Shown: positions 25,486 through 50,243, numbered from the stretch's first letter. The stretch is DNA of 64,000 nt from a virus (IMGVR_UViG_3300017969_000006:35772-99771); one strand, 5' to 3'. Made by a program: numbers and translations. Notes: generated by a model not told the origin, from the sequence alone.

Positions 25486-27168
25486 ATGCCCACTAACGAA
25501 CTTACCGATCTCGAAATCAAAGCAGCGCCAGCCGGCCAGATGACCGTAAATCAGGCAAAAGGCATCGTCGAGGCTTTCGTTGCAGGAATTGGCAACAAAG
25601 ACTCTGTGGGCGATATTTGCGCCTCGGGAGCGTTCAACGCGAGCCTTAAGCGCCGCAAGCCACGCGTGGTGTGGGGACACAACTGGAATGACCCAATCGG
25701 TAAAGTGCTTGAAATCTATGAGGTTCCGGCTACCGACCCCCGCCTTCCGGAAAAGATGAAACGTGCCGGAATCGGTGGACTTTACGCAAAAGTTCAGTTC
25801 AACCTCAACAGTGAAAAAGGACGCGAAGCGTTCGCAAATGTCCAATTTTTCGGTTTAGAGCAAGAATGGTCAATCGGATACAAAACGCTCGACGCCATTT
25901 TCGATCCCGCCAAGCAAGCGAATGTTCTCAAAGAAGTCGAACTTTACGAAGTCAGCCCAGTTCTTCATGGCGCAAACCAGTTGACGGGAACAATTTCCGT
26001 AAAAGCAGCGAAGCAGAAACTGCGCGACCCCAAGGGTGGGCTGACCGCCGCTGGGCGACGTCACTTCAACCAGACCGAAGGATCGAACCTCAAGCCGGGC
26101 GTTAAAGGTCCTGCTGATACGCCGCAAAAAATGCGTCGGAAAGGCTCGTTTCTGACTCGCTTCTTCACAAACCCATCCGGGCCAATGAAAAAGCCGGACG
26201 GCAAGCCGACTCGCCTCGCACTTTCAGCGGCTGCATGGGGCGAACCAGTTCCACAAAACCGCAGTGACGCAGCCAAACTCGCCGCAAAAGGACGTCGACT
26301 CCTTGAACGCTACGAGAATGCGAAGAAAAAAGATGCTGATTGGGACGAGGAGCAAATCGACTATACGGTCTTTGAGAACTTCTTCGCCGAGGATAACCCC
26401 GAGTTCAAAACGCTCGAAACTGACGAGGGATTCTCTATTAACGATATTGAAATCGACGAGGTCGACGAAAAGGGCCACTACATGATGCGTATGGTTCCAC
26501 GCAGAGCCCCAGAAAGCCCCCGCCGTGACATTTTCGCAGAAGGCGAAGCGCAATCCCTCAATGCGGAGAAGCGAAACGCCCTTGAAATGGAAATTGCTTC
26601 ACGAACCCAGATGCCGATCAAACTCATTGAGGCGACGGAAAACTTGGCTGTCTTTGCTAAGAGTAAGCCAGATGGTACTAAGAAGTTTTACCGCCTTCCA
26701 TACCACTGGGACACTGAAACCCAGCAATACATGTTTGGCAAGCCAGAGCGCGTCGAGCCAGCGATGATGTGGCGCCCACGGAAGCCACGCGTCGTCGTCC
26801 CATCACAAATGCCGTCAATGCCGGTTGAAGTAAAGCCTCAAGGTGAAGGGCGAGGCGAGTACAACAACCCTGTAACCGTGAAGTTTGAAGAAGATGAGAA
26901 AAGCGCAATCGATCAAATGATGGAGTGGCTTGATGAATCTGAAGATGTCGAAATGAAGGAAGATGCTGTTCGCTTCATCATCGAATGCGACATGGAAGAT
27001 GCCTTCAACGTGAAATCTGCATTCGACCCAATCTTCGATTACTACAAAGTTGACGTCGAAGTTACTGAAGATGGAATTGAAGTTCTGTCAGAGGCTTCTG
27101 ACGACTTCTTGAATGCCATTGCGGTTGCTTCCAAATCGATCTTCGGGGAGACCGAAAAAAAAGTCTGA
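25486..27168 (+). CDS. HK97-type prohead protease with DUF6321-like domain and acidic tail
   Basis: GNKDSVGD, WGHNW (His), EWSIGY (Ser), ELYEVSPVLHGAN; DPKGGLTAAGR...PTRLAL...W; ATG 25486 with AAGGAG (ORF track start GTG 25468). Confidence 0.92.
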   Translation: MPTNELTDLEIKAAPAGQMTVNQAKGIVEAFVAGIGNKDSVGDICASGAFNASLKRRKPRVVWGHNWNDPIGKVLEIYEVPATDPRLPEKMKRAGIGGLYAKVQFNLNSEKGREAFANVQFFGLEQEWSIGYKTLDAIFDPAKQANVLKEVELYEVSPVLHGANQLTGTISVKAAKQKLRDPKGGLTAAGRRHFNQTEGSNLKPGVKGPADTPQKMRRKGSFLTRFFTNPSGPMKKPDGKPTRLALSAAAWGEPVPQNRSDAAKLAAKGRRLLERYENAKKKDADWDEEQIDYTVFENFFAEDNPEFKTLETDEGFSINDIEIDEVDEKGHYMMRMVPRRAPESPRRDIFAEGEAQSLNAEKRNALEMEIASRTQMPIKLIEATENLAVFAKSKPDGTKKFYRLPYHWDTETQQYMFGKPERVEPAMMWRPRKPRVVVPSQMPSMPVEVKPQGEGRGEYNNPVTVKFEEDEKSAIDQMMEWLDESEDVEMKEDAVRFIIECDMEDAFNVKSAFDPIFDYYKVDVEVTEDGIEVLSEASDDFLNAIAVASKSIFGETEKKV

Positions 27169-27194
27169 GGGGTCGCGCTCAAAGTTTCGACCCC
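27154..27194 (+). other. Putative -1 programmed frameshift signal (A AAA AAA + 6-nt spacer + GGGGTCG/CGACCCC hairpin)
   Basis: A8 at 27155-27162; stem 27169-27175 pairs with 27188-27194; the -1 frame is open into ORF 27315..30038. Confidence 0.7.
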
Positions 27195-30038
27195 AACGCT
27201 GTAGATGGTGACGAGGACGGTCTCGTTCAGGAGGGCACCCCCTTCGAGCGTCCAGCCACACCCAATGTCGCTCGCGCCCTTAGGAGCGCCACAAGTTCCG
27301 CCGGATTCGACGGGATGAAACGCGACGATATGGCGAAAATGCGTTCAGAAGAATTCAACGAGGCGGTACAGAAACAGTTCGAAAAAGCAAAGGAACTGAG
27401 GGCCGAACTGTACGAGAAATATCCAAAACTGGATGCGATGCTTGCAGCGCAGCAGATTGCGACCGTCACTTCAGTTCGCACCGGTCAGGACATCCGTGAA
27501 GAAGATGTCATGGAAGAACTTCAAGATCTGCTGAAGATCGATAGCGACGAAATCGACGACCTAGCAGACATCATCGCCAGTACACGATTCAGCCAAGACC
27601 TCCTCGAAGCGGACGAAGCGCAAATGTCAATTTCTCGCGCTCGAGATTTCGTTGAGGAAACAACTGAGGACATGGGGAACATCTCGCTCGCAATCACCGA
27701 CATGGAAGAAGACGTAGAAACCGCTCTTGACCGAATCAAGAAAGAACTTGACGGCATGGAGATTTCTACAGGGCAATTCAAAGATCTTGCTGAATCCGAT
27801 GACCGTGCCGACGCAACCCGCAGGCTACTCACTGATTTGATTGACGACCGAGAAGAACTTGAGCAACAGATTCCTCAAATGGGCTACCTTCTTGAAGATT
27901 ACGACGAGGTCAAGGAGATGCGCGATCAACTCAAAGACCTCGTAGATGAACTCGAAGAACTTTCAAGTGGACCTGTTGAATCTAGGGAGCGGGGACGAGA
28001 TCTGCTTAAGCAAGGTTTCCTGAACGCTGACTCACTAAACACGGGGTACGACGAAGACAAGTTTCGTGAGATGCTTGGAAAGTTCCGCAAGACAAAGACT
28101 TACGAGCGTGCCACCGAAGGGATGACAATCGTCCGCAAGCGCAGTATTCCAAAATCTGAACCCGTTGCTGACAGCGACGCCGCAAGGGACATTCATGGAC
28201 TTGGAAAGCGCAGCATCATCAACATCCCGGAAACGGGCGTTCAGGTCATGCTCAACGATGATCAACGTGGCGATGCTCGTCGCACCATCGCTGGTCTCAG
28301 GTCATCAACACAAAATCCTGATGCTTTCGAGAAGATGGACGAGTGGCTTTCCGGTAAATCGCCCAATATTTCGCGAGATCAGCATGAGGAGATTTTCAAC
28401 GAGTTCGCAGATGCCGCCAACCGGGATTTGGATCTTGGAGACCTCCGACACGTCCGTGACGCGATCAACTTGGCGGCAATGTCTGAAGATGGAAAATGGA
28501 AAACGCCAAAGGCTGAGGGTGGATTCGATGGAAGACCAAAACCCGCTGGTCTGACTAAGCGCCAAAGAGCAGATTTGTTGGAGTGGGGGCAAAACGACGC
28601 AGATGACATGCTGCGTAGACGCTTCGTTGGTCTGAAAGAAGATGATGTGTCCCCCAAGGGGTGGATGATGCTCCGCAACGATTTTGGCGGTGGCATGCGT
28701 TCAGCAACTGGCGGTGGAAGCATCAATGAAACGCGTGACACCGGCAAGCGAGCACAGCGAGGTAGGCCGGTTGGCGCTGGTGATGAGAAGAAATTCAAGG
28801 GCAAACCGTTCTCGGAAGTAAAACCTGACAATTGGGATCAGTTGACTGCCGATGAGAGGTTTGACGAACTTCTTACGAATTTGCACCCTTCTAAGACCGG
28901 TCTTCGAGAAGTTGACTTCAACCGTTTGAGAAAAGAACTGGTGCTGGAGTCTCTCCGCTCAGATCAGGAAAGCGAGCGTGCTCGACGTCGGGCTCAGCGT
29001 CGGGAAGCGCTGGCGAACGTCAGGGTAAGCAAACCAACTGAGCGCCCTGCTGCTCGACCTGCTCCAGTTGCTACAACCGCTGAACAAGCCAAGAAGCAGC
29101 GTCAGCAGGAAGTCACGAAAATCGGCAACCGAGTTGCCCGTATTTCGTCAAATATTGACAAGCAGTTCGAGAGAGACGAAGAACGTGGTTTGGACCCCAA
29201 CGATGAGTCCCATAGAGATATTTGGGCGTCACTTACCGACATTTTGGAAGATAGCGATGAGTTAACCCTGTCTCAAGCAGAATCCATCGCTGCAACCCTT
29301 GACGACTACCTAGAAGAAGCATCCGGAGCAGATCTTACTGCAACCGAATCAAACAGTGTCCAAAATGCTCAGGTTCTTCGCGCAGATATGGGCGATCTGA
29401 TTGACAGATATAGGCTTGACCCGAATATCAGCAAGGGTGACAGTTCAGCGGCGGTCCGAATTGGCGGCGAAGGTGAAGAAGATGTCGCCACCACCGGCCG
29501 CTCCGCCGCACGATTCCTTTCCGAAGGCGGAATGCGATCATTTACCTCATACAAGCCTTCCCCAACCGTCCAAGAATACGCAGAAGCACGCAGAAGCCAA
29601 GGGCTACGCAGTCAACAGGCTGGACGAACCGTAATCAATGAGGAAGCGACATTCTTCAAGGCAATCGAAGATTCTCTGGCAAAAGAAATCAGAGAAGCAC
29701 GTAACGCCAACGATTCACGAACGGTTAAGGGGCTTGAACTACTTCAGCGAATTATGCGTCGTCAAGATTCAGGCAAAGTCTCGGATCGTCGAACCAACGC
29801 CGGCGCACTTTGGGTGACGGCAGACGAAGCCGATGAGATTTTGGACGCGATGATGTTTGCCCTTGACCGACAAATGGAAACAGGCGGATCTAGGGTGGAC
29901 CTGTATGCACAATTTGTCGAAATTATCTCGGCTGCCGCAATGGGGACATTCATCAGCAAGACGACCTCGGAGGTTTCGTCACGAACCCAAGCACGAACGA
30001 ACAGTCAAGGACGACAAGTAAATATCCCGAATCAGTAG
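27162..30038 (+). CDS. Tagged cargo protein 1 (frameshift extension of the protease; ORF track 27315..30038)
   Basis: -1 frame reads SLRGRAQSFDPNAVDGDEDGLVQEGTPFERPATPNVARALRSATSSAGFDG, then continues into MKRDD...; largely helical, five [GA][LM]RS motifs. Confidence 0.75.
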   Translation, partial: SLRGRAQSFDPNAVDGDEDGLVQEGTPFERPATPNVARALRSATSSAGFDGMKRDDMAKMRSEEFNEAVQKQFEKAKELRAELYEKYPKLDAMLAAQQIATVTSVRTGQDIREEDVMEELQDLLKIDSDEIDDLADIIASTRFSQDLLEADEAQMSISRARDFVEETTEDMGNISLAITDMEEDVETALDRIKKELDGMEISTGQFKDLAESDDRADATRRLLTDLIDDREELEQQIPQMGYLLEDYDEVKEMRDQLKDLVDELEELSSGPVESRERGRDLLKQGFLNADSLNTGYDEDKFREMLGKFRKTKTYERATEGMTIVRKRSIPKSEPVADSDAARDIHGLGKRSIINIPETGVQVMLNDDQRGDARRTIAGLRSSTQNPDAFEKMDEWLSGKSPNISRDQHEEIFNEFADAANRDLDLGDLRHVRDAINLAAMSEDGKWKTPKAEGGFDGRPKPAGLTKRQRADLLEWGQNDADDMLRRRFVGLKEDDVSPKGWMMLRNDFGGGMRSATGGGSINETRDTGKRAQRGRPVGAGDEKKFKGKPFSEVKPDNWDQLTADERFDELLTNLHPSKTGLREVDFNRLRKELVLESLRSDQESERARRRAQRREALANVRVSKPTERPAARPAPVATTAEQAKKQRQQEVTKIGNRVARISSNIDKQFERDEERGLDPNDESHRDIWASLTDILEDSDELTLSQAESIAATLDDYLEEASGADLTATESNSVQNAQVLRADMGDLIDRYRLDPNISKGDSSAAVRIGGEGEEDVATTGRSAARFLSEGGMRSFTSYKPSPTVQEYAEARRSQGLRSQQAGRTVINEEATFFKAIEDSLAKEIREARNANDSRTVKGLELLQRIMRRQDSGKVSDRRTNAGALWVTADEADEILDAMMFALDRQMETGGSRVDLYAQFVEIISAAAMGTFISKTTSEVSSRTQARTNSQGRQVNIPNQ

Positions 30039-30127: not shown

Positions 30128-31690
30128 ATGGTCACAGGCAAACAGGCTATGATGCCATGTAGTGGTTGTAGCATCTCTAAGAGATGTTTACTGAATAACA
30201 TGCAGTACAAGGAGCCTACCAACATGGAACAAGAAGAGAAAGCAGTCATCAAGATCGATGCCGAGGGCAAGATGATGAACTGCGCCAAAGGCCATGGTGG
30301 AGACGACTGCGGCTACAAAACTGGCGCGAAGATGTGCGGCAAGTGTGGAGCCATGGCAGTTGAAGTAAAAGATGACGATGCCGACTCCGAAGATCTCGAG
30401 GCCAAGTCCTACGATGAAATCGACGAAGACGACGAAATTATCGAAAAGGCACTCGCCGCCGTTGCTACCGATGAAGACGAGGACGAGGACGAGGAAGAGT
30501 CCGACGAGGAATCGGATGATGACGCCGAGATGAAGGCTGTTGGCAACGCTCCACAGATGGATGAAGAAGAAGACGAAGAAGACGAAGACGAAGAAGAGGA
30601 CGACGTTGCCCCCGCAGAGGCCGCCCCAGCCGAAGAGGCCACTCCTGCCGATGATGAGCCCACCCCTGATTCTGATGCCGAGATGGAAGAAGAAGAAGAC
30701 GAAGACGAGGAAGAGGACGACGAAGAGGAAAAAGGCTGGATGGGTGACGCTCGCAAGCGCCGCCTCCAGACCATGGGGCGCAAATCTGCCGACCTTGGTC
30801 AGACCGGCTTCCTCTGCGCCGTCGAGCGCAAGGTGTACCCGGGAAGCGCATCCGTCTGTGACGACTGCCCGGGTGGATGTATCGCCGAAAAAGGCATGCC
30901 CGGTCTCATCGAAATCGAAGGCAAGGCCGAAGCAGAGTTCAACGGTACCGTCATTGATTCCGGATACTCGCAGGACAGCGACATCTACGTCATTGACCTT
31001 GAAGTTAAGGACGGACACGCCATCGAAGTGTTCATGGAGGGATCCACTGGCGAAACCCTCGGCTTCCATCGTCTCGACGACTCTGTGTTTGAGCAGAAAT
31101 CGCTGACCGCTGACACCGAACTAATCGATTTCAACGTCGCTGCCGAAATTGCCGTCAAATCAATCGAAGGGGTTGAAGGCATCGTTACCGCTGTGGAGCC
31201 TGACACCTTCGAAGGCTTTGACGTTTACGCAGTAGAGGTCGACGGTATTGATGGCAAGTCATATGACGTATTCGTCGCTCTAGACGGAGAAGTGCTTGGT
31301 TTCGACACTTACGAACCGGACGAGGCGGAAGAGATTGAAGCCGAAGCGGCAGAAATCGCCCTCAAGCGTGCGTTTAATGAATCCCAGCGAGAGGAAATGG
31401 CCAAAGAAGGTCTTGCGCTTCCTGATGGTTCTTTCCCAATTTCCAATGTTGACGATCTGCGCAACGCAATCATGGCCCATGGCCGCGCCGTCGACAAGGA
31501 GAAAGCCAAGAAGCACATCATTAAGCGCGCCCGAGAAATGGGTAAGGAAGAGATGATTCCTGCTGCTTGGACATCCGCCAAGAAAGAAGACGCCGAGGTG
31601 AACGACATCAACGACGCAAGTTTCATGCGTTCGCTGGTCGAGTTTGAAATGCTCATGAACGAGGACGACAGCAACGACGGGAACTCCTGA
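30128..31690 (+). CDS. Acidic head-associated protein: Cys clusters, PepSY-like repeats, C-terminal DUF6582-like domain
   Basis: Long D/E tracts; AAEIAVKSIEG..VTAVE...YAVEV...YDVFVALDGEVL; QREEMAKEGLALPDGSFPISNVDDLRNAI...HIIKRA; alternative ATG 30224 has AAGGAG. Confidence 0.7.
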   Translation: MVTGKQAMMPCSGCSISKRCLLNNMQYKEPTNMEQEEKAVIKIDAEGKMMNCAKGHGGDDCGYKTGAKMCGKCGAMAVEVKDDDADSEDLEAKSYDEIDEDDEIIEKALAAVATDEDEDEDEEESDEESDDDAEMKAVGNAPQMDEEEDEEDEDEEEDDVAPAEAAPAEEATPADDEPTPDSDAEMEEEEDEDEEEDDEEEKGWMGDARKRRLQTMGRKSADLGQTGFLCAVERKVYPGSASVCDDCPGGCIAEKGMPGLIEIEGKAEAEFNGTVIDSGYSQDSDIYVIDLEVKDGHAIEVFMEGSTGETLGFHRLDDSVFEQKSLTADTELIDFNVAAEIAVKSIEGVEGIVTAVEPDTFEGFDVYAVEVDGIDGKSYDVFVALDGEVLGFDTYEPDEAEEIEAEAAEIALKRAFNESQREEMAKEGLALPDGSFPISNVDDLRNAIMAHGRAVDKEKAKKHIIKRAREMGKEEMIPAAWTSAKKEDAEVNDINDASFMRSLVEFEMLMNEDDSNDGNS

Positions 31691-31713
31691 AGGCTGGGAA
31701 AGAGTGGCCCACT

Positions 31714-34700
31714 ATGGCCAACATCCGGGCCGAACGAGTAATACTTTCTGATCGCGTCAACACCTATCGACGTGATTACGAAACCATTGGTGCTCTCTTT
31801 CGGATAAAGAGTGCGGTACTTGCTTCCCAAGAGAGCCTTGACCCAAACATCTCTGTAAAAGCGTTAAATCAGGATCTTCCCAAAAAAGATAAAAAAGATT
31901 CTGAGAAGCGCACTTCTGGTACGGGAGTTGAAGAACAACTCCCCGAACTTCGCTATGCGCCTAACGGCAAACGTGGCCGTGGCGACGTACTCAAACTGCA
32001 TGTAACCCCACGCGACCTCACAACTGGCAACGAACCAAACTTTGGTTGGATTCCTGCTCCTGAGAAAAAATCCGAAGAGGAAACACGCAAACAAATGCGT
32101 GAACTGTTGGATTGGAAGAAGCGCCGACCCAAAGTTCGCGTCAGGAGTTTTCGTGCTGACCCAAGAACAGGTCAACGAGTAGAGGATTCCGGTGTCGATG
32201 TCGAAGTAAAAGGACTCGGCAGAAAACTGAACCAGATTGTTCCCGGAGGGAATTTGTCCTCACGTGCGGCTGGGGCAGTTGGAGTACTAACTGACGCAAA
32301 CGGGAAATTCCGATGCCCGCCCGGAACCCCGGCAGCCAACCAGTTCACCGATGAATTTGGTACAAACTGTTTCAAACCAGCACTCTCCTCGCGTCGACTC
32401 ATTGGAGCGATGCGTCGGTGGTTCGACAAATATGTTGAACTCGGAGAACAAATCCAACTGCTTGAAAGCATGGGCATATACGGTGTCGGGCCAGACGACC
32501 TAACCCCTCAATACAGGCAAAACATCCGAAACATGGTTCGGGCTGCTGGAAGTGTTGCGCCAAAAGAACGCGTCCAAGAAGTTCAATCCCGAATGGACAC
32601 CGCAATTGATGCCCTCCAAACACGACTTGGAACGACTCGCGACACCACAGACAATGCCGACATGTGGACCGCGCTGGCAACGCTGGCCGCCGATGAATGG
32701 CAAGACCTTGACTTCTCAGGGATTTTTTCCGGACCGGAAGGCTGGGGTTCGTGGAACAAAAACATGCTTGCCGACCCAAAGGGTCGCACTCCTCAAGCAG
32801 CAGCAGATCACACTGCCGACGTTCGTAGCCAATACATCTCAATGTTTGACAACTGGGTGTCGGACGGCCCAATGCGCCAAAGGTACCGAGATGGAGACCC
32901 CGAAGCCAGAGCCCTCATTGACGAAATGGTTACCCGCCATCTGGCAGCAGAGCGTGGCTTCTTAAAGGCGATTCTTCAGGAGTATCAAGAATCCCCGGAA
33001 ATCATGCGTCAAGTAAAGACGCTAGGCCGAACGCAAATCCGTGATGGCGAGGCGTTTGATGACTATTGGCGAGTAGATGGAGAATGCAGCCCGGCAGGTT
33101 TCCACCCCAGAGATGGGTTCGCTCTGAATATTGACTTCAACGCGGCAGCAGTGGCTCTGAAACCAGCAATCCAAAACGGACTAGCAAATTACACTTCTGA
33201 CGGCCGCATCCTCTTATTCGATATCGACCCCAACGATGTGTCTCGCTCATTCACTTCGGAAGCCGAACAGTGGGCCGAAATCGGAAACCTGATGCAGAAC
33301 ACCGTCGATCTTGAACGGTGGCGAAATGTTTACGCTCAAGACCTTTCTACCGCACGCCACGGCTCAATCGAAGCAAAGGGTGTGCATATCGCAAAACATG
33401 AACTTGGTCACGCCCGCCAGTACCAGTTCATTAAAAATGCCGTCTTGGACACCCACGCCAAAACAGGCTCCACCTACTTAGTCAACTCAACTTCAGGTCA
33501 AATTGAACGGCTCGACGTTTCTCCCGATCAGTGGACTAACCAGCAATGGGTTGATGTGGTGACGAGTCAGGTTCAACGTCTTATCCCAGAAAAGTACCTC
33601 GCCGATGGCTTCCCACCGACGTCGCTTGAGACGTTCGAAGGAACAATGCTTCACATCATGGCGGGAAGGTATTACCAAGACGAAGTTCAAAATTTCTTCA
33701 ACTTGAATGATGATGCCAAACGAGGACAGTCGGCATTGATGATGCTCGAAGGCATGACAGAATTGCGCGCGCTTCGAGATATGGGTGTCCTCATGGATCC
33801 AGAACTCGACCGGCTCGTGTCATGGATGGACGACGTTGACCCCAGAACACCGGAACGCCCTGATCCGCAAGGAGTTATCTGGCCGCCGCCGACAAGTTCA
33901 GCAATGCAAGTGTTCCAGCCGGATCCCAATGGAACGTGGGACACAATTAGCCGCACCCCGATTGAAGATCCAAACCCGTTCATTCCTGACCTTGGCGGAA
34001 AACAGGAACATATCGATGCCATCAATTCACGCATCTCAAGTCTCAATCGCAGTCTTCCCGACGCCGAAAGAGACCTTTTTGATCCAAGAAGCGAAGTCGT
34101 CGAAATCCAGAACGGCAATGACGTTGTCGAACAACTGAGAAGTGGCAAAACCGCTCTCGACATTGAAAACCTGACGGTTAAGAAACAGCAAATCATTGAC
34201 CGCGAAGTACTTGCTGAGGACATCGCAGCAACAGGAGAAATCGACGATGTTGGGGATCTCGAGGTCGGCGATGCCATCCGATTCAAAGGATTCAAAACAC
34301 TTGATCGCCGCATGGATGCTGATCAAGAACAAGACCTTTCGGCTGACGAAGGAAAACGGAAAGTCAACTTTGTTCTACCTAAGGGAACAAAAGGCATCGA
34401 AAAACAAAACCCGGCGAACAACGAGCCCGATCAGGTTGAGATTCCCGGCGGAGAATACGAAGTCCGTTCTGTTAACCCAGATGGAACTGTCACGCTAGTT
34501 CCCCGCAGCCAAGATGATGCCGACACCGTTGCTCGTCGCCTCATCGACAGTCTTGATGGAAGTTCCGACATAGACGACGTTCGCGATGCTGTAAGAACAG
34601 TTCAGAAACGGGCGCAGAAGTACGTCCAGAAAAAGGAAAAGATTCGTCGAGCCACGCGATCCAGCGACCCGGCCACCGCACAACGTATGGAGCGGCGCAA

Positions 34701-41445: not shown

Positions 41446-41780
41446 ATCAGAAAGAATGGAACAAAAAACTCGAGAAAACTACCGGTTTTCCAATCAGTGA
41501 AATGTTCACTGCGCTATCCAGTGATCAACTGATTGGGAAGATTCGGGAGGCTGAAGATGGAAAGGATCCATTCGCTGACAAAAGAATGGAAAAATTTGAG
41601 CAATTTCTTGATGTCCATTCAAATAAGCGCGTAAACCCAAACAATCCTTTTAGGGACGATCGAGATCGTGAAATTTGGTCAACGATCGAGTTCCGGACAG
41701 TTCTCTTGCCTCCAAAAGAACGAAATAAGCGGATTCCAACCTATTTCGGACCGAATCGAGTACAACTAGAAGTTTCCTAG
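41442..41780 (+). CDS. Small protein coupled to the 829-aa gene (candidate immunity/partner)
   Basis: ATGA overlap, 112 aa. Confidence 0.6.
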   Translation: MNQKEWNKKLEKTTGFPISEMFTALSSDQLIGKIREAEDGKDPFADKRMEKFEQFLDVHSNKRVNPNNPFRDDRDREIWSTIEFRTVLLPPKERNKRIPTYFGPNRVQLEVS

Positions 41781-41813
41781 CATCATCATTATCTATTCTA
41801 AACTGGATACACC

Positions 41814-42449
41814 ATGGATGAAATCGAAGTCAAAGGCCCACAAGATGTAATCCTCGACCTTCCACAGGAACGAGTCACGGCGATTACTGGCGGCAGGGGA
41901 CCGCGTCGCGGCAACCTTGAGAGGTTGTTGCGCTATTGGCGTCCCATCATGAAAAAGCCGGGTGGATTCAGAAGGTGTCGTGTAATTCTTGCGGACCACC
42001 CAGAACTTTACCCACTCGAACGAATCTGTGCTTGGCTGCACCATGAGACAACCGGTCTTTGGCCCAATGAGGGATGTCACCATCCCGGAATGAAAAACTG
42101 TAGAGGAAAACTCAAGAAGCGGAACTGGTCTGATGCCGACTGGAGCAAGAGGATGGCTCGACGCTTCAAAAAGAACAAGAAATCTATCTTTGATCATCAA
42201 GTTGATGACATGTTCTACGGTGATTTTATTGAACGTAAAGAACTTGAAACAGATTTCGACTATAATCAAGTAGTTACCGAAACAGATTTCAAGCATGCGA
42301 TGTCCGTTTTGTCAGACTTCATGGACATGGAACCTGATTTCGTCTCGTATATCAGAGATTACGAAAACTGGGAAATCGTCGGAGACGACGAAAACGGCGA
42401 TGAAATTTCGGCAACATTCGTGAAAACCGAAGATTGCGGATGTGACTGA
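41814..42449 (+). CDS. Head-associated protein with Cys/His domain
   Basis: GNLERLLRYW...PGGFRRC...ICAWLHHETTGLWP; begins MDEIEVKG. Confidence 0.65.
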   Translation: MDEIEVKGPQDVILDLPQERVTAITGGRGPRRGNLERLLRYWRPIMKKPGGFRRCRVILADHPELYPLERICAWLHHETTGLWPNEGCHHPGMKNCRGKLKKRNWSDADWSKRMARRFKKNKKSIFDHQVDDMFYGDFIERKELETDFDYNQVVTETDFKHAMSVLSDFMDMEPDFVSYIRDYENWEIVGDDENGDEISATFVKTEDCGCD

Positions 42450-44404
42450 TGGCCACTTCATACATTTACGAAAAAGAAGTTGATTGTGAAGCGTGTCCAA
42501 GTGTTCGCGTGAAAAGAACGATCATCGCCAAACTCGAACAGAAAGAAAACGTTCGTTACCTCCGGCAAACTCGCGCAAATCGTGAAGAACTCGTGCAATT
42601 TAAAGCACTTTCTAAACGAAACGGGAATATTCGCCAGTATGACGTCAAACGAGTTGGCGCAATCGGGTCAAGTAGCCGTCTGGGGCAAGCAGCCCAAGCA
42701 ATCGGAACCATTGCCACCCCCGGAAATATTTCCCCTTACCGCAGCCCAATCAGGTCAGGAATTGCTCGTGCCCTGACTCCCGGCAAACCCGGTGGTATGC
42801 GTGGTGTACGTCGCCGGGGACGAACCTCTAGGTGTCCAGAAGGATTCCAGTACGGTGGTCGTTTTACTGACAATGAATTCTCGACATGTGGGCAACAGTT
42901 GTTCGATGTTCCATCTCCCCTTGGCGCAACAATTCGCGCAATTCGTGAGCAGCAAAGAGCCGCCGCTCGAGGACCAGCCCAACCGCGAACTGCCGCTACG
43001 CCAATTGCCTCACAAGGAACAGTGAATCGTGACCGTGCCGTTCGTGCGGCACAAATTCCGCGCGTGTCAGCCACCACGAAGAAAACCGATCGCGATAAGA
43101 GCACCGCTGAAGTAATCAAAACGATGGGCAAGCCAGACATCAACGCCACTCGCCTCGTCCGACGTGACGGATATGTTCTCGAGCCAGTCGTGACACCCCG
43201 AGTTCTTCGAACCATCCCAGACAACCGAGACATGGTTGATGCAACATTTATTCTGACTGCCAAGAATCGCGCAGACCTTGGCGACCAAGAACTTGGGCTT
43301 CTTTCAAATACAGGCGTAACCAACGTCACGTATGTTTTTCAAGACGGATCTTACGTTCAGATTCGAAAAGTTCGTTCATTGACCCGTGGTGAGCGACGCA
43401 AGTTGGGTCGCACCGTGAACGCGGCGATGAAAGTTGATAACGAAAGTGACCCTCTTGCACGCCTGAAATACGTTTCAGATGAGACCGGTGATGGCATCGA
43501 TCTCGTTGAGAGCCTACGAGGCGGTCGCACGATTCAAAAAATCCTTTCCGGGAAAGGCAAAGTTTCGAGATCGAAAGATTCAGAAACTGTCGATCCGCTT
43601 GGAGACGCCGCAAAAACAGTTCGAGACGGAGGAGACATCTCCTCTATCCGCCCAACAATCCTGCAAGAAGCGATTGGTAAAACGAATCTCTTCAAAAAGA
43701 CAGGTACTGACAAGTACAAGGCTGCCGATGGCAGGGTTTACACACTGCGCACTTCGGGCAAGTCAGGCGAACACATTACGCAAGCCATGTCATCCGCAGT
43801 CCAAGACCACCTCGGACTCAACGGTGTTGATATCGCATTTGTCGGTAAGGGATCATCGAAGCGCAAGTACTTGTCCATGACCCCGGAATCCGAGATCGTC
43901 GACGGTGCGCTTTCCAAAGAGAAGTCATTCAATGACCTCGATGTGGACGACGTGGCAAAACTTTTCGTATCTGACATGGTTATGGATATAGAAAGTCGCG
44001 CCAGCAACACGGTTGCGATCTTCGACAAGGGGGATGAGTCGTCGCTCATTGCGACATTTGCCCAAAGTGAACTCGTGGATCTTTCGGATGCCAAAATTCG
44101 TGAACGTACCCAGAAAAAGATTCGCGACATGAAAGCATTGCAACCCGACAGCATTTACAGTAAATACTATAAGAGTTTGAAGGCTGAACAGCGCCGACAA
44201 ATGCAAGAAGAGATCGACAAACTCATTGCGAAAGCACGCGAATTTAACTTCACCAAATTCCGCGACAAACTCTACGCAGATGGAGAACTCTCCTCAGCGG
44301 AGAAGACACACTTGAACATTATTGCTAAAATTATTAAGACACGTATTGATGTACTTACCGACAGTAGGGAAGTTTTGATGCGTGTTCTCGGAGGTCAGAA
44401 GTGA
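42449..44404 (+). CDS. 651-aa cargo-like protein with RCPxG..FTD..C motif and degenerate HipA/PI3K-like C-terminus
   Basis: RCPEGFQYGGRFTDNEFSTC; DGRVYTLR...AVQDHLGL...VAKLFVSDMVMDIESRASN. Confidence 0.6.
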   Translation: MATSYIYEKEVDCEACPSVRVKRTIIAKLEQKENVRYLRQTRANREELVQFKALSKRNGNIRQYDVKRVGAIGSSSRLGQAAQAIGTIATPGNISPYRSPIRSGIARALTPGKPGGMRGVRRRGRTSRCPEGFQYGGRFTDNEFSTCGQQLFDVPSPLGATIRAIREQQRAAARGPAQPRTAATPIASQGTVNRDRAVRAAQIPRVSATTKKTDRDKSTAEVIKTMGKPDINATRLVRRDGYVLEPVVTPRVLRTIPDNRDMVDATFILTAKNRADLGDQELGLLSNTGVTNVTYVFQDGSYVQIRKVRSLTRGERRKLGRTVNAAMKVDNESDPLARLKYVSDETGDGIDLVESLRGGRTIQKILSGKGKVSRSKDSETVDPLGDAAKTVRDGGDISSIRPTILQEAIGKTNLFKKTGTDKYKAADGRVYTLRTSGKSGEHITQAMSSAVQDHLGLNGVDIAFVGKGSSKRKYLSMTPESEIVDGALSKEKSFNDLDVDDVAKLFVSDMVMDIESRASNTVAIFDKGDESSLIATFAQSELVDLSDAKIRERTQKKIRDMKALQPDSIYSKYYKSLKAEQRRQMQEEIDKLIAKAREFNFTKFRDKLYADGELSSAEKTHLNIIAKIIKTRIDVLTDSREVLMRVLGGQK

Positions 44405-47400
44405 AACAGTACGCTTTAGTAAAGGACATGGTTAACGGCTCGTCTTACTATGGCGTTGTCATCCGTGAAAATGGGCTTACCGAATGCAAAGGTGTTTCAG
44501 GTGTAGGCGAAAAGTGGGCGGAATCTTACAACAACGCCGAAACTAAGTCCCTTGACGATGGTCTTCCCTATGGTGTGAAAATCGGAGAATTCCATGCGTT
44601 GACTCAAAGCGAGGAAATCCTTGTCGAACACATGCTTGACGGCAACACTGTTCGTTTCCCAGACAGAACTCAACTGAAGCAACTGTCTTTCCACAAAACA
44701 GACGCTAATTCAAGCCTTCCTGCCGTTTCAAACACGCCGCTTTCAGCATTTTTGATGGATGACCTGCAAACCGCAGTTGACTACAAGATTCGCGCTTTCC
44801 TCTCCGACTCTGCGAGAGCGTCAGTGATGCTGAAGTCACGTCTTGAAAGATACGGCATCAGCGACACAACTGTCGGCTTCAAGTCTGCAAGCAATAACAG
44901 TTTCCTGAATGAAGACATGTCCAGTGTGGCTCGTGGACATGGCAATCTTCGACGTGCGCTGTTGGATATCAGAGACGCAAAATCAACCTTCCTAGAAAAT
45001 CATCCGGGATATCAGGTTGGAATCGAGGAAAAAGCAATCGGGCGTAGCCTCGGTCGAGGTGCGCGCATTGGCAGACGTGCGGCTCGCGCCTTCAAGCCAT
45101 ACGACCCGAACGCAATCGATGGCGACATGGACGGAATTGTTCAAGAAGGAACACCTTGGGAACGTCCAGCAGTCAGAGTTGGTGGACGTGGCGTTCGCTT
45201 AACCCCAACGCAGCAGCGGGCAAGAAGCGAAATTGCTCCAGATGTCGGGATGCGTAGCCGGACGGGTGATGGAGAAAGCATTCAGGACAGGCTTACAGCG
45301 GCGCGTAACAGTCGACAGCAAAAACTTGCCGATCGCATGCGTGAAATGGGTTTCGACGATGACAATCAAAAAGAAATCAATGACTGGCTGAGAACCTTTA
45401 ACCCGGAAGATTTCGAATATACCGACATTGATGATCTCGAGATTGAAGGTCTGACCTCGCGCCGTGGCTCATCCAGCCCTACCGGCAGCATTTTTGGTCA
45501 GCGCCGTTACTCAAGCGAGGATTGGATCGAAGGCCAACTCGATGAGGGGCCGCTTGCTGGTTCTTTCTTTGAACTTCGAACCGCACGCGATTACACCGAA
45601 AGCAACTTTAATGATCCGGGTGAAACGCTCGGTGGTAATGATGAGTTGACTGTTTACACGCCTGATGGTGTCGTTCTCAGTTTCGAAAACGAAACATGGG
45701 AAGACTCTTTGGACCTTATCAATGTCCGCGCACCGGGCGGTGATGGCCTTCGGTCAAGAAGTCGACGCGGGGATGACGAGGACTACCCTCGTATCGACCC
45801 CGATCTCATCAACAGGTTGCGAAATGAACGATTTGTTCCCGAGACAAGTCGTTCTGGTCGTGCACGTCAAAACCGCATCATTAACACCCCGAACGCTGAT
45901 GGTGGTCCACCACGTCGTGCAGTCCGGGAGCGCTCTGGCCGAGTTGTCCCAGAACCACCGGCACGTGATCGGAGCGGACTGCGCAGCAGGACCGGTGACA
46001 CCGCCAACAGAAATGCCGAATTGACCGGTGTAGGAACAACCGTCCCCAAAGCCATGAAGGCAAACAGGAAGTTCTTCCAAACACTTGCTGCCAACGGATT
46101 CGTTTGGGACGACAAGCCTGACACCAGTGGCAGAGTTAGGATTTTCCTACCCGACCGCATGTCCGACTGGACACTTGACCAGCCCGACAGCGTCCGTAAT
46201 CAGTGGGGCAAATTCAAACCAGCCCGCGAAAATCAGGCAGCCGGCTTCATTCACGTACACCCCGGCAAGGACACGCCACAACGTCCTGAAAACATGGCGA
46301 AACGTTTCCTGCGCACCATTTTTGGCGACACCGCATGGGACGACATGGAAGCAAACGCCAAGAAACCCGGCGATAAGCGCGGCACTGGTCGAATCGGAGT
46401 AATTCCTTCAACTAGCACCGGCGCGACTGGATTGCGTTCCGCAACGTCTCGTGCTCGCACTCGTACTGCCTCAACGGAAAGAGTAGCAACGCCCACCACA
46501 ACCGGACGAAGCCTCCGCTCGGGCCAACTGCGCAAACTTGGAAAGCCCGGTGTCGCAAGAGGTGAAAGCGACGGAAAAATCTGGGAACAATTGGATGACA
46601 ACCAACGCGATTTGTTCAAGCAATTTGCACAGGCGCGTGAAGTTCAGTTGATGCGGAATCTCACTCAGGATGCGAGAATGCGAAAGTTCCGCAACAAGAT
46701 GATAGATGATGGCGATTTCGACGAAATCGACGAGGACGGCAACGTTGTGCGGAATTACAACAAACCGCTTGCTCGAAACATCATCCCATTGGCGCAACGA
46801 GAAATTGACGATCTGCTTCGCGATGAAAAAATCACGGAGGAAACCCACGTAAAGTGGCAGAAAACTTTGGACGACATCAAGACGTTGCGCAACATGAAGG
46901 AAAGCGACAACTACGAAGCGCTGGAGCACCTGCATCCGGCAAGTCGTGCCAAGATCATCAAGGACGCTCGGGGTGAAGATTCAAGCATTCCGGGTGTTCG
47001 TGCACTGAAGGCTGATGGTCCGTCAACGTTCTTCGGTGATCAAGCCCGTACAGCCAGTGGTCGTAGCGCCGGTAAGAATCGGAAACCGAAAAGGAAGCGG
47101 CCTTTCGCTGACCGCATTATCACACCGAATGTTGAACGACTACAGCGTCGGGCGGCTCGTCGTCAACGAGCACAAGCGATTCGTCGGGGAGGCCTTGTTC
47201 GCGGTCAAGAGGCTGACGTTTCTGCAACGCAAAATGCTCGACGCAAACTGGCTCGTCAACTTCGTCGAGCACGACGCAGATTTAAAGGAGAACGCGACGA
47301 AAGAGCGATCCGTAAAATCTTTGACGAAAAGAAGAAAAATCACCCATTGGCCCGTACAAAAGAAGGCGCTCCAGAAGTCAATGACAAGTACGTTGATTAC

Positions 47401-48246
47401 CTTGCCTTCGTCGGATCAAATATTGATAAACGTCAAAAAGGTGAACTCTCATCAGACGTTCGCGACAGCGTCCTTCGAGACCTTTGGCAAAACGGAGGAT
47501 TCAACCAACGCCCCGAACTCATTTCTGCGGACGAGATGCAGGCCCTCAGCGATGCGGGTTGGCAGGTTCTACACCGAGGAGTTGACAGACTGGGAACTCA
47601 AGCACAAGCAAACACAGATTCGTACAAGGAAGACTTGGACCGTTTCACGCCCGGCGAAACTAATCTACGAGCACATGGCGTTGGCGAATACTGGGCTGCT
47701 CCGGGGAGTGGGCACTGGGGAGGTTACGGTTCTGGCATGCTTGCCTTCATTGACCCAGAAGGCAAAAGGATCCAGAGGAATAAACTCAAGGGATTATCAG
47801 ATGAATCTTGGCCAGCAATGAAGGAAATCCAAGATCTCATCGATGAACTAGGTGATGGAGTTGCACAAGGTGAAGACCCTGCAAACTTCGTTGATCAAGT
47901 AATGGAACGACTCCGCTCCAATGGTCTCGAAGGTCTCCTCGAAAAAGATAATGAAATCATCCAAGTGGCTCGCCAATTGCTCGACAGGTACAAGGGCATG
48001 ACCCCGAATGACACAAAGCGTGAAAATACGTGGAATGCCATTCAATATATGCTCGGCCAATCGAGGCAGGCGCAATGGTCAGGCGGAGAGGGATATTGGG
48101 CTCCAATCCTCGGCTACGACTACGTCACCTCAAACGAGGGCGTGTTCCTTGTTCACAACCGAGGCAGTGTTGCTGTGCTTGACGTCGCCGAACCGCTCAG
48201 CGGCGGAGCAGCAAAGACAATTGTAGATGGCCTCAATGAAGGGTAA
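44401..48246 (+). CDS. Tagged cargo protein 3 (1281 aa), multi-module with C-terminal ART-like domain
   Basis: EEKAIGR, YDPNAIDGDMDGIVQEGTPWERPA, four G[LM]RS motifs; C-terminal GFNQRP...LHRGV...HGVGEYWA...ILGYD...VHNRG. Confidence 0.7.
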   Translation: MKQYALVKDMVNGSSYYGVVIRENGLTECKGVSGVGEKWAESYNNAETKSLDDGLPYGVKIGEFHALTQSEEILVEHMLDGNTVRFPDRTQLKQLSFHKTDANSSLPAVSNTPLSAFLMDDLQTAVDYKIRAFLSDSARASVMLKSRLERYGISDTTVGFKSASNNSFLNEDMSSVARGHGNLRRALLDIRDAKSTFLENHPGYQVGIEEKAIGRSLGRGARIGRRAARAFKPYDPNAIDGDMDGIVQEGTPWERPAVRVGGRGVRLTPTQQRARSEIAPDVGMRSRTGDGESIQDRLTAARNSRQQKLADRMREMGFDDDNQKEINDWLRTFNPEDFEYTDIDDLEIEGLTSRRGSSSPTGSIFGQRRYSSEDWIEGQLDEGPLAGSFFELRTARDYTESNFNDPGETLGGNDELTVYTPDGVVLSFENETWEDSLDLINVRAPGGDGLRSRSRRGDDEDYPRIDPDLINRLRNERFVPETSRSGRARQNRIINTPNADGGPPRRAVRERSGRVVPEPPARDRSGLRSRTGDTANRNAELTGVGTTVPKAMKANRKFFQTLAANGFVWDDKPDTSGRVRIFLPDRMSDWTLDQPDSVRNQWGKFKPARENQAAGFIHVHPGKDTPQRPENMAKRFLRTIFGDTAWDDMEANAKKPGDKRGTGRIGVIPSTSTGATGLRSATSRARTRTASTERVATPTTTGRSLRSGQLRKLGKPGVARGESDGKIWEQLDDNQRDLFKQFAQAREVQLMRNLTQDARMRKFRNKMIDDGDFDEIDEDGNVVRNYNKPLARNIIPLAQREIDDLLRDEKITEETHVKWQKTLDDIKTLRNMKESDNYEALEHLHPASRAKIIKDARGEDSSIPGVRALKADGPSTFFGDQARTASGRSAGKNRKPKRKRPFADRIITPNVERLQRRAARRQRAQAIRRGGLVRGQEADVSATQNARRKLARQLRRARRRFKGERDERAIRKIFDEKKKNHPLARTKEGAPEVNDKYVDYLAFVGSNIDKRQKGELSSDVRDSVLRDLWQNGGFNQRPELISADEMQALSDAGWQVLHRGVDRLGTQAQANTDSYKEDLDRFTPGETNLRAHGVGEYWAAPGSGHWGGYGSGMLAFIDPEGKRIQRNKLKGLSDESWPAMKEIQDLIDELGDGVAQGEDPANFVDQVMERLRSNGLEGLLEKDNEIIQVARQLLDRYKGMTPNDTKRENTWNAIQYMLGQSRQAQWSGGEGYWAPILGYDYVTSNEGVFLVHNRGSVAVLDVAEPLSGGAAKTIVDGLNEG

Positions 48247-48255
48247 ACTATTGAC

Positions 48256-48639
48256 ATGAGTGATACAACTAACGAATGGGGCGAAGATCTGCAAGAGGTA
48301 GAGCGTCGACAGCAATTCACCGACCGGTTTAACGAGTTGATGGACTTGACCGACTACCCGCCATTTTCAATCAATCTTGAAAAACACAACGAGTATCGCG
48401 AAGAAGTCATGGCCTACAGCGTGAAAATCTCTGAACAAATTCGTGAAAGCGACGCAATCGAAGATCGACCATTCTCAACACTTATGGCGAAATGGGAAGA
48501 TGACCTTGACGAGGCCAAACTCTACAAACAGCGTTATGGTAGGGATTTTGTTGGCGCCCAGAAAGCGGCCGCAAAGAATGACGGCATCTCCATGCGTGAC
48601 GTAAAGCCCATCGGACCACCATCAGCATATAAAGACTGA
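48256..48639 (+). CDS. Small protein after the 1281-aa gene (candidate immunity/partner)
   Basis: 127 aa; ATG lies 6 nt after its own TAAACT box. Confidence 0.6.
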   Translation: MSDTTNEWGEDLQEVERRQQFTDRFNELMDLTDYPPFSINLEKHNEYREEVMAYSVKISEQIRESDAIEDRPFSTLMAKWEDDLDEAKLYKQRYGRDFVGAQKAAAKNDGISMRDVKPIGPPSAYKD

Positions 48640-50243
48640 TGAATAAAGGGGCCGCCGGGAAAGCGCGAGCACTCCGACGCGCTAAAGAATTGGGATGCAC
48701 TGGTGCACACAAACATCCTGACGGCGGCTGGATGGCATGCTCCACCCATGAAGAGTACGAGCGTTTAGAAGCCGAAGAAGAGTCCGAGCAAGAAGAAAAA
48801 TCCGTTCTTTCTCGTGTTCGTGAATTCCAAAGTGTTCGCGAACGAAAAGGCAAACGCCGCAAAAAGAAAAATAAAAAGAACTGGGAAAAACTCGGTGAAC
48901 GTGGCGTTGTTTCAATCGACACAATCACTGGCGGCGGGCTCGTTTCGGGCGCTGTCGCTGGAAAAGTTGCATCAGCAATCCCCCGTGACGGAGAAGAAGA
49001 TGTTTTTACCGACATCAACTCAGCACGTCGAAGGGCGCGACAACTGGGATGTATCGGAGTTGCACGACGTCGTTCCACTGGCGGTCAAGTCGTATGGACT
49101 CCGTGTTCAAACATCACCGACTATGCGCGACGCACAGGAAGCACCGCCCTTGGCCGTCGATACATAGAACGAATGCGACGGCAAGAAGCGCGTCGAATCG
49201 TTGAAGAAGAACGCAAGCGCGGTCGCTACAAGCGTAAAATTTCCCTATTTGAAGAACTTCACGGGAAAGCGCTCGGCAGGAAAATCCGTCAGGCTGCTGC
49301 TGTTTTCGATGCCAATGCCACGGATGGTGACAACGACGGGATGGTGCAAGATGGCACCGCTTTTGCTAGACCAGCAATCCCCAAGGGTGTCGGTAAGTCG
49401 AAAACATGGAAAGACCTCATTGAGATGGAGCCCGGTTGGATGTCCGAGGCACCAAAAAACATTCAAAGAGCAGCGTCGCAGGAAGCGAGAGAAAAACACC
49501 GGAAATTACGTGTTTCTGGGCTTCGTTCGCAGCAAACCGGGTCCGGTGGTCGTGCTCAAGTGAGTCGAATCATGCAACAAGTCATGCCAGAGCATCGTGG
49601 AAAAGAGGATAGAACCCTCTATTTCATTGGCGGAACAACTGGTGCGGGGAAGTCAACTCTCACCCGAAATGACAGATTTGGGATACCGGGGCCTGATGCT
49701 GCTGCACATATTGACCCTGATGAGATTAAGGCCGGTTTGGTTGGCTGGGATAATGGCCGTGGTGCTGGTGCCGTTCACGATTCTTCACGACGAGTTACCG
49801 ATCACGCCATGAAAGCAGCGGCTGAGGAAAAAACCGATATGGTCGTTCAGGGTACTGGCAAGAGGACTGAGCACCTTCAAATGGCTCGTCAAAATGGATA
49901 TGCAACTGTTGGGCACTTTGTTCATATTCCCGGTGACGAAGCAGATCGCCGGATTGTTCAGCGAAATGCTGACAATAGGCAGAATGGTGGAGCGATAATC
50001 CCGGAATGGTTTGGGAGCCAGATTGGTCGTGAACTACAGCCGATTGTTCCTCGTCAAATTACATCCGGATTATTTGATGAATTCTTCTTGTGGGATAACA
50101 GCGGAGACACACCCGTTCTGATTGCTAAGCGCACCAAAGACGGAAATTACAACATCAATGATATTGATGCTTTCAATGATTTCTTTAGTCCGACCGGAGC
50201 CGAGTACGTCAAGAACTACTGGGATAGTAAGTCAAGTAGTTAA
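48639..50243 (+). CDS. Tagged cargo protein 4: two DUF3721-like repeats plus zeta-toxin-like P-loop kinase
   Basis: AKELGCTGAH...WMAC and ARQLGCIG...WTPC; HGKALGR, FDANATDGDNDGMVQDGTAF, GLRSQQ; GGTTGAGKST, HIDPDEIK, VVQGT, LWDNS. Confidence 0.8.
   Translation: MNKGAAGKARALRRAKELGCTGAHKHPDGGWMACSTHEEYERLEAEEESEQEEKSVLSRVREFQSVRERKGKRRKKKNKKNWEKLGERGVVSIDTITGGGLVSGAVAGKVASAIPRDGEEDVFTDINSARRRARQLGCIGVARRRSTGGQVVWTPCSNITDYARRTGSTALGRRYIERMRRQEARRIVEEERKRGRYKRKISLFEELHGKALGRKIRQAAAVFDANATDGDNDGMVQDGTAFARPAIPKGVGKSKTWKDLIEMEPGWMSEAPKNIQRAASQEAREKHRKLRVSGLRSQQTGSGGRAQVSRIMQQVMPEHRGKEDRTLYFIGGTTGAGKSTLTRNDRFGIPGPDAAAHIDPDEIKAGLVGWDNGRGAGAVHDSSRRVTDHAMKAAAEEKTDMVVQGTGKRTEHLQMARQNGYATVGHFVHIPGDEADRRIVQRNADNRQNGGAIIPEWFGSQIGRELQPIVPRQITSGLFDEFFLWDNSGDTPVLIAKRTKDGNYNINDIDAFNDFFSPTGAEYVKNYWDSKSSS

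Follow-up and report, generated by a model that had tools for sequence, protein, structure and literature searches.

Putative tagged head-cargo polyproteins encoded between the prohead protease and capsid genes of an uncultured phage

Polyvalent proteins are giant multi-domain chains that, by the prediction of the paper describing them (Iyer, Burroughs, Anand, de Souza and Aravind 2017; PMC5512222), undergo packaging and processing and reach the host along with the phage DNA; in that paper, ArdC-N, MPTase-PolyVal and similar domains are presented as hallmarks of proteins predicted to enter the host in this way. In phage SPN3US, the prohead protease gp245 cuts many internal head proteins at a short motif; their N-terminal propeptides measure 111-254 aa, and the proteins pass into the host by ejection (PMC10052503, PMC7411985). 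In T4, the unrelated proteins IPI-III and Alt enter the prohead core by means of an address peptide, which the head protease cleaves off, and they are later injected. Here, a locus of this kind is described in a 64,000-nt stretch of DNA (the window; IMGVR_UViG_3300017969_000006:35772-99771) from a 99.8-kb IMG/VR viral contig of an uncultured phage, with an estimated completeness of 67% and a genome of about 150 kb. Between the genes for an S78 prohead protease and an HK97-type major capsid protein, it encodes a series of cargo proteins, the largest of which share an internal sequence, termed the tag, and short recurrent motifs, termed joints. With moderate confidence, the interval is interpreted as encoding virion-packaged, protease-processed polyvalent head cargo that would be loaded late, cut at the joints and injected with the DNA.

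The kind of system is already known from polyvalent proteins, T4 internal proteins and phiKZ-type ejection proteins. With polyvalent proteins, as passages of the same paper describe them, the locus, its relatives and other tag-bearing proteins between them have in common a virion gene neighbourhood, MPTase-PolyVal, ART-PolyVal, ArdC-N, zeta, kinase and nuclease modules, and portal/MuF fusions. The cargo is encoded by a phage among virion genes (an IMG/VR viral contig). The polyvalent signature domains or the portal/MuF fusion occur in relatives and in other tag-bearing proteins; a Pfam search found no MPTase-PolyVal, ART-PolyVal, ArdC-N or portal/MuF fusion in the window's own cargo proteins. 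Several unrelated conflict-type enzymatic or DNA-binding domains share one chain in the related genomes G003, G004 and G005, and the window's modules are spread over several chains. A difference lies in the peptidase: the assemblin-like peptidase of polyvalent proteins is placed 'always at the C termini' in the relevant passage (PMC5512222), whereas in the chains described here S78 comes first. Term searches of that paper and searches of the wider literature found no description of a protease-headed chain, a conserved, disordered three-part tag or its wide occurrence, lineage-specific joints that double as sites of module exchange, a 22-44 kb protease-capsid block or a conserved slippery site at the junction.

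Like the SPN3US proteins gp53 and gp54, the cargo starts with a segment (anchor domain and tag, with the first joint 201-294 residues from the N terminus in g829, g1281 and g534) in the size range of the SPN3US propeptides. Unlike in phiKZ and SPN3US, whose protease is of the T4 gp21 type and cuts after Glu, the joints here are of the G[LM]RS type; sequence similarity is also lacking (no PHROG or phage-database match for the cargo), and SPN3US has single-protein substrates and no protease-cargo fusion. The proposed likeness to T4 IPI-III and Alt is in the steps of loading, cutting and injection. The T4 tag, however, consists of about 10 N-terminal residues ending in LxE and is cut by gp21, whereas the tag here is internal (aa 125-260), 50-90 residues long, placed behind an anchor domain and free of any LxE rule. 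By this analogy, the window system would work like that of T4 in its logic, but it is not a member of the capsid targeting sequence system. The N-terminal protease of herpesvirus UL26 (assemblin) shares its fold with S78 and is joined to a downstream polypeptide from which cuts ahead of Ser at short, repeated x-A↓S sites (the arrow marks the cut) release it, giving two products in a set ratio. The downstream part of UL26 is scaffold rather than enzymes, and the ratio comes from a nested transcript rather than from frameshifting. In encapsulins, the targeting peptide GSLxIGSLK docks cargo on the inner face of an HK97-fold shell (PMC10960027). The short first part of the tag, made of Gly, aliphatic and basic residues (KGIGRSLGG, SLFGRIGRRIG), looks like such peptides and like the capsid-targeting C-terminal tail of HK97 gp4, a resemblance by sequence only; unlike either, the tag has two further conserved parts.

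Layout and synteny of the protease-capsid interval

The first-pass annotation of this DNA had reported protease and capsid genes split by co-oriented genes, six of them encoding 534-2342 aa, and both the gene map and Pfam agree with it (Table 1). The two head genes are 23.2 kb apart, and the space is filled by tightly packed plus-strand genes whose stop and start codons often overlap. The cargo totals 7514 residues across g907, g520, g2342, g829, g112, g211, g651, g1281, g127 and g534 (proteins are named by their length in residues). The protease is of the HK97-type (S78) prohead kind, with matches to PF04586 (47 bits, cut-off 21), PF19846 (99.6 bits) and phrog_80 (E 9e-32). Its His and Ser motifs are present (GHNW, aa 70-73; WSIGY, aa 134-138) and sit in stretches common to its relatives (patterns VWGHNWND and FFGLEQEW). 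The portal is 42% identical to those of Brevibacterium phage Cantare and Gordonia phage GMA6, and the capsid protein about 50% identical to the Cantare and Bendigovirus capsids; overall, portal, protease domain and capsid show 40-50% identity to the actinophage myoviruses Cantare and Bendigovirus. Near-identical DNA was found in 13 salt-marsh metagenome runs from the year 2018.

In IMG/VR, 338 stretches encode relatives of the protease. Ten relatives with protease and capsid genes on one contig have the same layout, the two genes lying 22-44 kb apart with giant co-oriented open reading frames (ORFs) between them. Gene order is syntenic in the five relatives that are complete or nearly so: a protease-headed chain, an acidic protein of about 500 aa, a giant protein with the RCP form of the tag (see below) and HExxH, and small genes are followed by an RCP protein of about 650 aa, another giant, a small gene, a tagged protein and the capsid protein. 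The tagged protein before the capsid ends in a zeta-like kinase in G001-G003. The six large proteins had been described as unrelated over most of their length but sharing short motifs. The shared motifs stand, but free assortment does not, because syntenic orthologues are present in related phages and the cargo is thus a conserved set.

Nearly all relatives have a protease ORF that stays open past the tag, in the same frame, for another 590-2589 residues, which makes the protease the head of a polyprotein and the tag its junction. For example, the protease-headed chain of G004 combines S78 with UvrD, ArdC-N and MPTase-PolyVal, and that of G005 combines S78 with Mor/HTH and sigma-70 region 4. 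G003 encodes DUF3721, sigma region 4 and zeta in one chain, and a G003 giant carries RNase T. Neither tags nor joints occur in the genes that lie between portal and capsid in the cultured phages Gordonia Bendigovirus, Brevibacterium Cantare and Streptomyces Gilgamesh. Between its portal-MuF fusion and its capsid gene, Gilgamesh (L095, record 31978-45852) encodes a 4624-aa hypothetical ORF, and this phage could be a tractable model for head-cargo giants.

Tag, joints and the protease junction

The tag consists of K[AGS][LI]GR, a basic Gly/Arg-rich stretch (ATGGVRGFVR in g829) and either FDPNAxDGDxDGxVQEGTxFERP or RCPxG..FTD..C, and it lies 60-250 residues in from the N terminus. A hidden Markov model (HMM) of the tag, built from relatives' sequences only and excluding the window sequence, was run on all 1862 stop-to-stop frames in the genome; 4 matched, at E 2e-13 to 1e-15, with no further match up to E 10. 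Three of these are g829, g1281 and g534, and the fourth is the frame that directly precedes the start codon of g907; a three-part tag had been noticed in four proteins before. The RCPxG..FTD..C motif, earlier assigned to two proteins, was likewise recovered in g2342 (aa 200-219) and g651 (aa 128-147) and is kept in relatives. The same KxLGR start and basic middle precede it as in the DGD-type tag; it is thus a second form of the tag, and all six large proteins carry one. Among 12 homologues of g829, the tag is the best-conserved portion of the alignment yet is predicted to be disordered by AlphaFold 2 (AF2), as would suit a partner-binding peptide. The acidic g520 could be bound by the basic middle part of the tag.

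Across protein clusters at 50% identity, the tag profile matched 840 at E <= 0.001 and 146 at E <= 1e-10. Among the best 143 tag-bearing clusters, 38 begin with the protease (tag at about residue 430-640), 51 resemble g1281, g534 or g829, and 50 are other cargo. In tag-bearing proteins, the tag stands after Phage_portal and Mu_F domains and before GNAT, ART-PolyVal, HipA/PI3-4-kinase and zincin modules, and some chains headed by Phage_portal and Mu_F hold three to five tags, one ahead of each GNAT, ART-PolyVal or zincin module. One match of the profile is an Excalibur-repeat protein, and this shows a resemblance of the tag's DxDxDG core to a calcium-binding loop. A scan of viral contigs for the genomic context of the distant tag-bearing proteins returned no match; confinement of the tag to head modules rests on domain fusions and on the loci of this phage's relatives.

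Recurrent [GA][LM]RS sites had also been pointed out, and counting bears them out. G[LM]RS occurs 11 times in the 7514 cargo residues, against a mean of 0.31 and a maximum of 3 in 2000 shuffling trials, and once in the genome's other 24,017 residues. The sole copy outside the cargo block, GMRSQTSGG, lies in a 1382-aa protein (4305-8453, minus strand) with a Gly-zipper match, possibly the tape measure; about one copy is expected there by chance. The joints lie in low-hydrophobicity stretches (p 1e-15), and in the g829 model the joint falls within a disordered stretch just ahead of the folded enzyme. In each lineage, the joint is the most frequent short motif of the cargo: G[LM]RS in the window, G001 and G002, GLAS[ST]T in G003, R[FL]SSG in G004, GLSSG in G009, SLRSSG in G008, GFAS in G010, ISGRMG in G006 and G007, and GP[VI]GxM followed by a small residue in G005.

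Blocks of homology between genomes stop at the joints, and the joint therefore behaves as a module boundary. The G003 orthologue of g534 has about 290 extra aa, including sigma-70 region 4, exactly at the joint. A 5345-aa protein of G005 (L088-L090), for which 11 GP[VI]G-type joints are listed, has a g534-type N-terminal anchor and tag separated from a C-terminal zeta kinase by about 4900 residues of other modules. The module of g907 that follows aa 763 is kept at the ends of the protease polyproteins of G001-G003, where it also comes after the last joint.

In the window, the protease gene ends in GAA AAA AAA GTC TGA, and the tag lies in a -1 frame stretch (tag HMM E 2.7e-15) that links the protease to g907 as a 1523-aa fusion. 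The same junction peptide is read in frame in relatives L004-L010. An assembly error at the A8 run was ruled out, because 26700-27700 is identical in four independently assembled contigs, from three DNA runs and one RNA-library run. Of 17 distinct junctions in the relatives, 16 have a slippery heptamer (A AAA AAA, G GGA AAA or C CCA AAA) in phase and at this position of the linker, compared with 4.7 expected from synonymous resampling. Where the fusion is in frame, the -1 frame stops after 1-12 codons, which would release free protease. The arrangement is flipped in the window and, independently, in L066, where the zero frame stops and the -1 frame makes the fusion. In L066 (2560-2800), which is of an unrelated lineage, the zero frame ends 8 codons past CGA AAA AAA and the -1 frame continues into tag and cargo. 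The junction thus has the heptamer and the start-less, conserved -1 frame of a putative programmed -1 ribosomal frameshift site, and a conserved -1 frameshift would yield both free protease and the 1523-aa protease-g907 chain.

Cargo modules and neighbouring genes

The first-pass annotation had attributed HExxH zincins, ART-like folds and a zeta-type kinase to the cargo. The HExxH candidates are g829 and g2342, with the motif invariant in g829 (H414, E415 and H418 in 12 homologues) or nearly so in g2342 and with zincin-like models for both. The AF2 model of g829 has a predicted local distance difference test (pLDDT) score of 71.5, with residues 97-217 below 50; in a VIA fold comparison, its best match is anthrax lethal factor (Z 8.8), followed by PPEPs, M1 aminopeptidases and thermolysin, and Foldseek returned no match at E <= 0.001. 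The g2342 model is poor (pLDDT 50); the fold that it matches best is that of the catalytic domain of lethal factor (Z 7.5), ahead of PPEP-2/3. There is therefore moderate support from models for g829 and g2342 as zincin-like proteins nearest to the lethal factor/PPEP (M34) group. When the family profiles of g829 and g2342 were compared, the alignment was weak and limited to the KALGR portion of the tag, and phmmer searches of g829, g2342 and g1281 against PDB gave no usable match. A zeta-type kinase in g534 is supported by PF06414 (35.8 bits, cut-off 22.3) and a Walker A motif (GTTGAGKS, aa 332-339, nt 49632-49655), alongside matches to PF12518 and PF13671. The ART-like folds did not hold up in the window: for g1281, there is only a lead of 0.84 in language-model features, and hhalign against an ART-PolyVal segment gave a probability of 1.6%. 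The N-terminal domain and tag of g1281 and its C-terminal ~700 aa are conserved, and its middle modules differ between genomes.

The C-terminal third of g651 resembles HipA/PI3-4-kinase folds, as an Atlas structure search matched HipA_2, HipA_C and PI3_PI4_kinase clusters (TM score 0.55-0.66 by target). No homologue of g651 was found in 50,697 cultured-phage records, and BLASTP detected no similarity between g651 and a tagged HipA/PI3-4-kinase protein. For g907, searches of Pfam, PHROG and PDB were without match. The acidic g520 starts with CxxC pairs and contains a long run of Asp and Glu, and its C-terminal motif PDGSFPI..NAI..GRA..KKHI is the same as the extension at the C terminus of the protease of Gordonia phage GMA6. 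On account of its acidity and this motif, g520 is probably scaffold-like, and the shared motif points to a scaffold domain that can stand alone or be attached to the protease. A Pfam search of the close relatives' giants made no addition. Among the small genes, g211 is 54-67% identical across all five complete relatives, far above the conservation of its giant neighbours, and g127 might, as a guess, be antitoxin-like, standing in the position of an epsilon-like antitoxin.

Outside the interval, the large terminase gene (21827-23131) lies on the strand opposite to the portal gene, and a staphylococcal-nuclease-like gene (51961-52326; PF00565 E 1.6e-8) lies directly 3' of the capsid gene. The head block is flanked by nucleotide and metabolic genes (52603-54528, 16261-17028 and 14511-15764 on the minus strand; 62076-63518 on the plus strand), which encode a class II-type ribonucleotide reductase, ThyX, a PAPS-reductase-like protein and a carbamoyltransferase.

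Table 1. Features of the head module and its cargo interval (nt positions in the window)
Feature	Position (nt)	Strand	Description
Portal	23390-25375	+	PF04860 E 3e-48; start of head module
Prohead protease, 566 aa	25468-27168	+	S78 domain, DUF6321 and ~300-aa C-terminal domain
A8 run, slippery heptamer and stem	27155-27194	+	A AAA AAA at 27156-27162, in phase; probable -1 frameshift site
Stem after slippery site, 7 bp GC	27169-27175 / 27188-27194	+	6 nt downstream of heptamer
-1 frame stretch	27162-27314	+	51 codons, no start codon; encodes tag FDPNAVDGDEDGLVQEGTPFERP and ALRS (27276-27287)
g907	27315-30038	+	First cargo protein; four G[LM]RS joints: aa 327, 460, 739, 763
g520	30128-31690	+	Very acidic, net charge -102; conserved in all six genomes compared
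g2342	31714-38742	+	N-terminal domain, RCP-type tag, zincin-like domain, joints aa 1459 and 1706
g2342 RCP-type tag	32209-32370	+	KGLGR aa 166 to C219
g2342 HELGH	33397-33411	+	Zincin-like domain; HExxH nearly invariant
Small ORF, doubtful	38642-38959	+	
g829	38956-41445	+	Small beta domain aa 1-95, DGD-type tag, ALRS, zincin-like domain
g829 DGD-type tag, predicted disordered	39340-39471	+	
g829 ALRS	39556-39567	+	
g829 HEMTH	40195-40209	+	
g112	41442-41780	+	Orthologues in two closest relatives
g211	41814-42449	+	211 aa, Cys/His-rich; weak phrog_6439 match
g651	42449-44404	+	RCPEG..FTD..C tag nt 42830-42889; C-terminal HipA/PI3-4-kinase-like domain aa ~396-650
g1281	44401-48246	+	N-terminal domain, DGD-type tag nt 45031-45153, joints aa 283, 449, 526, 677
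g127, small acidic gene	48256-48639	+	Overlaps start of zeta-like gene; orthologues only in two closest relatives
g534	48639-50243	+	DUF3721, DGD-type tag nt 49266-49358, GLRS nt 49518-49529, zeta-toxin-type P-loop kinase
Major capsid protein, HK97-type	50395-51711	+	PF05065 E 1e-46; ~97-aa delta domain

Proposed pathway, alternatives and significance

In the proposed pathway, each large chain begins with an anchor domain, followed by the conserved, disordered tag and then by at least one enzyme module, with joints as separators, and g907 would be made as an S78 protease fusion through a -1 ribosomal frameshift at A AAA AAA. The chains would be loaded together with the protease or by means of anchor and tag. 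The joints would then be cut, most likely by the prohead protease, with anchor and tag removed like a long propeptide, and the freed enzymes would exit with the DNA and act in the next host. For this phage, these enzymes would be two zincin-like proteases, a zeta-type kinase and a HipA/PI4K-like kinase; for its relatives, they would include ArdC-N and MPTase, UvrD helicase, sigma-70 region 4, Mor and RNase T. Late genes, fusion to proteins built into the prohead and modules useful only early in infection make packaging followed by injection the simplest reading, in agreement with the prediction of Iyer et al. for phage polyvalent proteins (PMC5512222). Loading, cutting and injection of tagged polyproteins, as first suggested for this DNA, have partial support, of a comparative kind, from the head operon, the protease, portal and MuF fusions, the PolyVal modules and the joints, and the tag is a candidate loading signal.

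Several observations weigh against this pathway. In other lineages, the tag recurs ahead of every module in chains that a portal, MuF or protease already anchors, which suits a cassette for junctions or processing as well as, or better than, a loading signal, and the K of the tag's first motif is unchanged where the capsid P1 residue changes. The capsid junction is unlike the joint motif in G003, G006, G007 and G008. At the frameshift site, the stem (-16.1 kcal/mol, z -0.75) is no more stable than shuffles. The zincin fold matches are middling (Z 7.5-8.8), most cargo in the window lineage has no recognisable domain, and the cargo proteins tested have no relative in the cultured-phage records.

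The main alternative to S78 as the cutting enzyme is the cargo's own zincin- or MPTase-type peptidases (g2342, g829), which would cut the joints of packaged cargo in the head or after injection. This is considered unlikely, although it deserves more weight than the explanations that follow. In 5 of the 6 genomes compared, the giant RCP protein has a conserved zincin-like domain with HExxH, HExxH also occurs in G005 cargo, and a passage of Iyer et al. (PMC5512222) proposes autoproteolysis by MPTase domains in polyvalent proteins. The match between capsid junction and joint motif, moreover, is inconsistent. S78 is favoured by the chains being physically headed by this protease, and by the joint P1' residue (Ser; Ser, Ala or Gly in G005), which matches the predicted mature N terminus of the capsid protein. 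That end is predicted at QFK↓SIGEEF in the window, with GEGLRE 12 residues upstream, and its general form (K, R or M, then S[IV]G) has a small P1' residue in common with the joints. Joint-like sequences just upstream of the capsid end were noted in three lineage groups (GEGLRE, [QH]LSSR and RRM↓S). A position-matrix test of the joints at the capsid site was positive only for the window, G001 and G002, and for G009, and [QH]LSSR in G004 and RRM↓S in G005 were seen by eye only. The reappearance of lineage joints at the capsid maturation site is therefore suggestive only.

Other explanations dispense with packaged effectors or change the meaning of the tag. The giants could be mainly structural, forming an internal core or inner body and a scaffold for DNA or head size, with little or no effector role after ejection: the protease-capsid interval is the usual site of scaffold genes, g520 is scaffold-like, and much of the cargo is helical or disordered and lacks an enzyme signature. 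However, it is not obvious what a capsid interior would do with kinase, zincin, helicase, ArdC-N, sigma region 4, RNase T and ART modules, and free module exchange between relatives is unlike a structural scaffold, so this role is judged improbable. Still less probable is that the proteins are not virion-associated at all, but late cytoplasmic polyproteins that act in the producing cell (in assembly, lysis timing or exclusion) and lie in the head operon incidentally, as non-structural genes sometimes do in late operons. In-frame fusion to prohead protease, portal or MuF in hundreds of clusters would put the chains inside the prohead by construction, and anti-restriction and sigma-like modules would be of little use late in infection. 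The tag could also be a calcium-triggered self-processing element, in which a DxDxDG loop binds Ca2+, a nearby Asp-Pro bond breaks and the chains separate in extracellular calcium. Its DxDxDGxxxE core matches the Excalibur calcium-binding pattern, the tag model cross-matches the Excalibur-repeat protein, many tags have Asp-Pro 4-5 residues upstream, and Ca2+-dependent Asp-Pro self-cleavage is established for the RTX self-processing module of FrpC (PMC7078468). Nevertheless, only 103 of 184 tags have Asp-Pro, and the acidic loop is degenerate in G004 and G005. The tag is also short and predicted to be disordered, unlike the FrpC module, a folded domain of about 177 aa, and such a role is the most improbable of those considered.

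Beyond this locus, it is possible, if only as a tentative generalisation, that hundreds of uncultured phage lineages share one delivery grammar. In it, a head anchor (protease, portal, MuF or a small N-terminal domain) would be followed by a disordered tag and by enzyme modules split by a joint, the joint would co-evolve with the head protease, and a frameshift would set the ratio of free protease to chain. If this is true, tag and joints could serve for loading chosen proteins into HK97-type capsids and for their release, and the parts are also suggested for encapsulin-like shells.

In summary, the first minutes of an infection are decided by proteins that the phage delivers, which counter restriction, take over transcription and poison host enzymes, and their loading is understood for only a few model phages. 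The window phage and its relatives spend 15-25% of their genomes on the cargo. Most of it has no recognisable domain, and it is thus a pool of unexplored enzymes with possible action on hosts. The locus offers three testable rules: an address made of anchor and tag, lineage-specific joints at which modules are swapped, and a protease-cargo fusion perhaps dosed by frameshifting. Together, these rules could explain how large uncultured phages diversify the arsenal that they inject.

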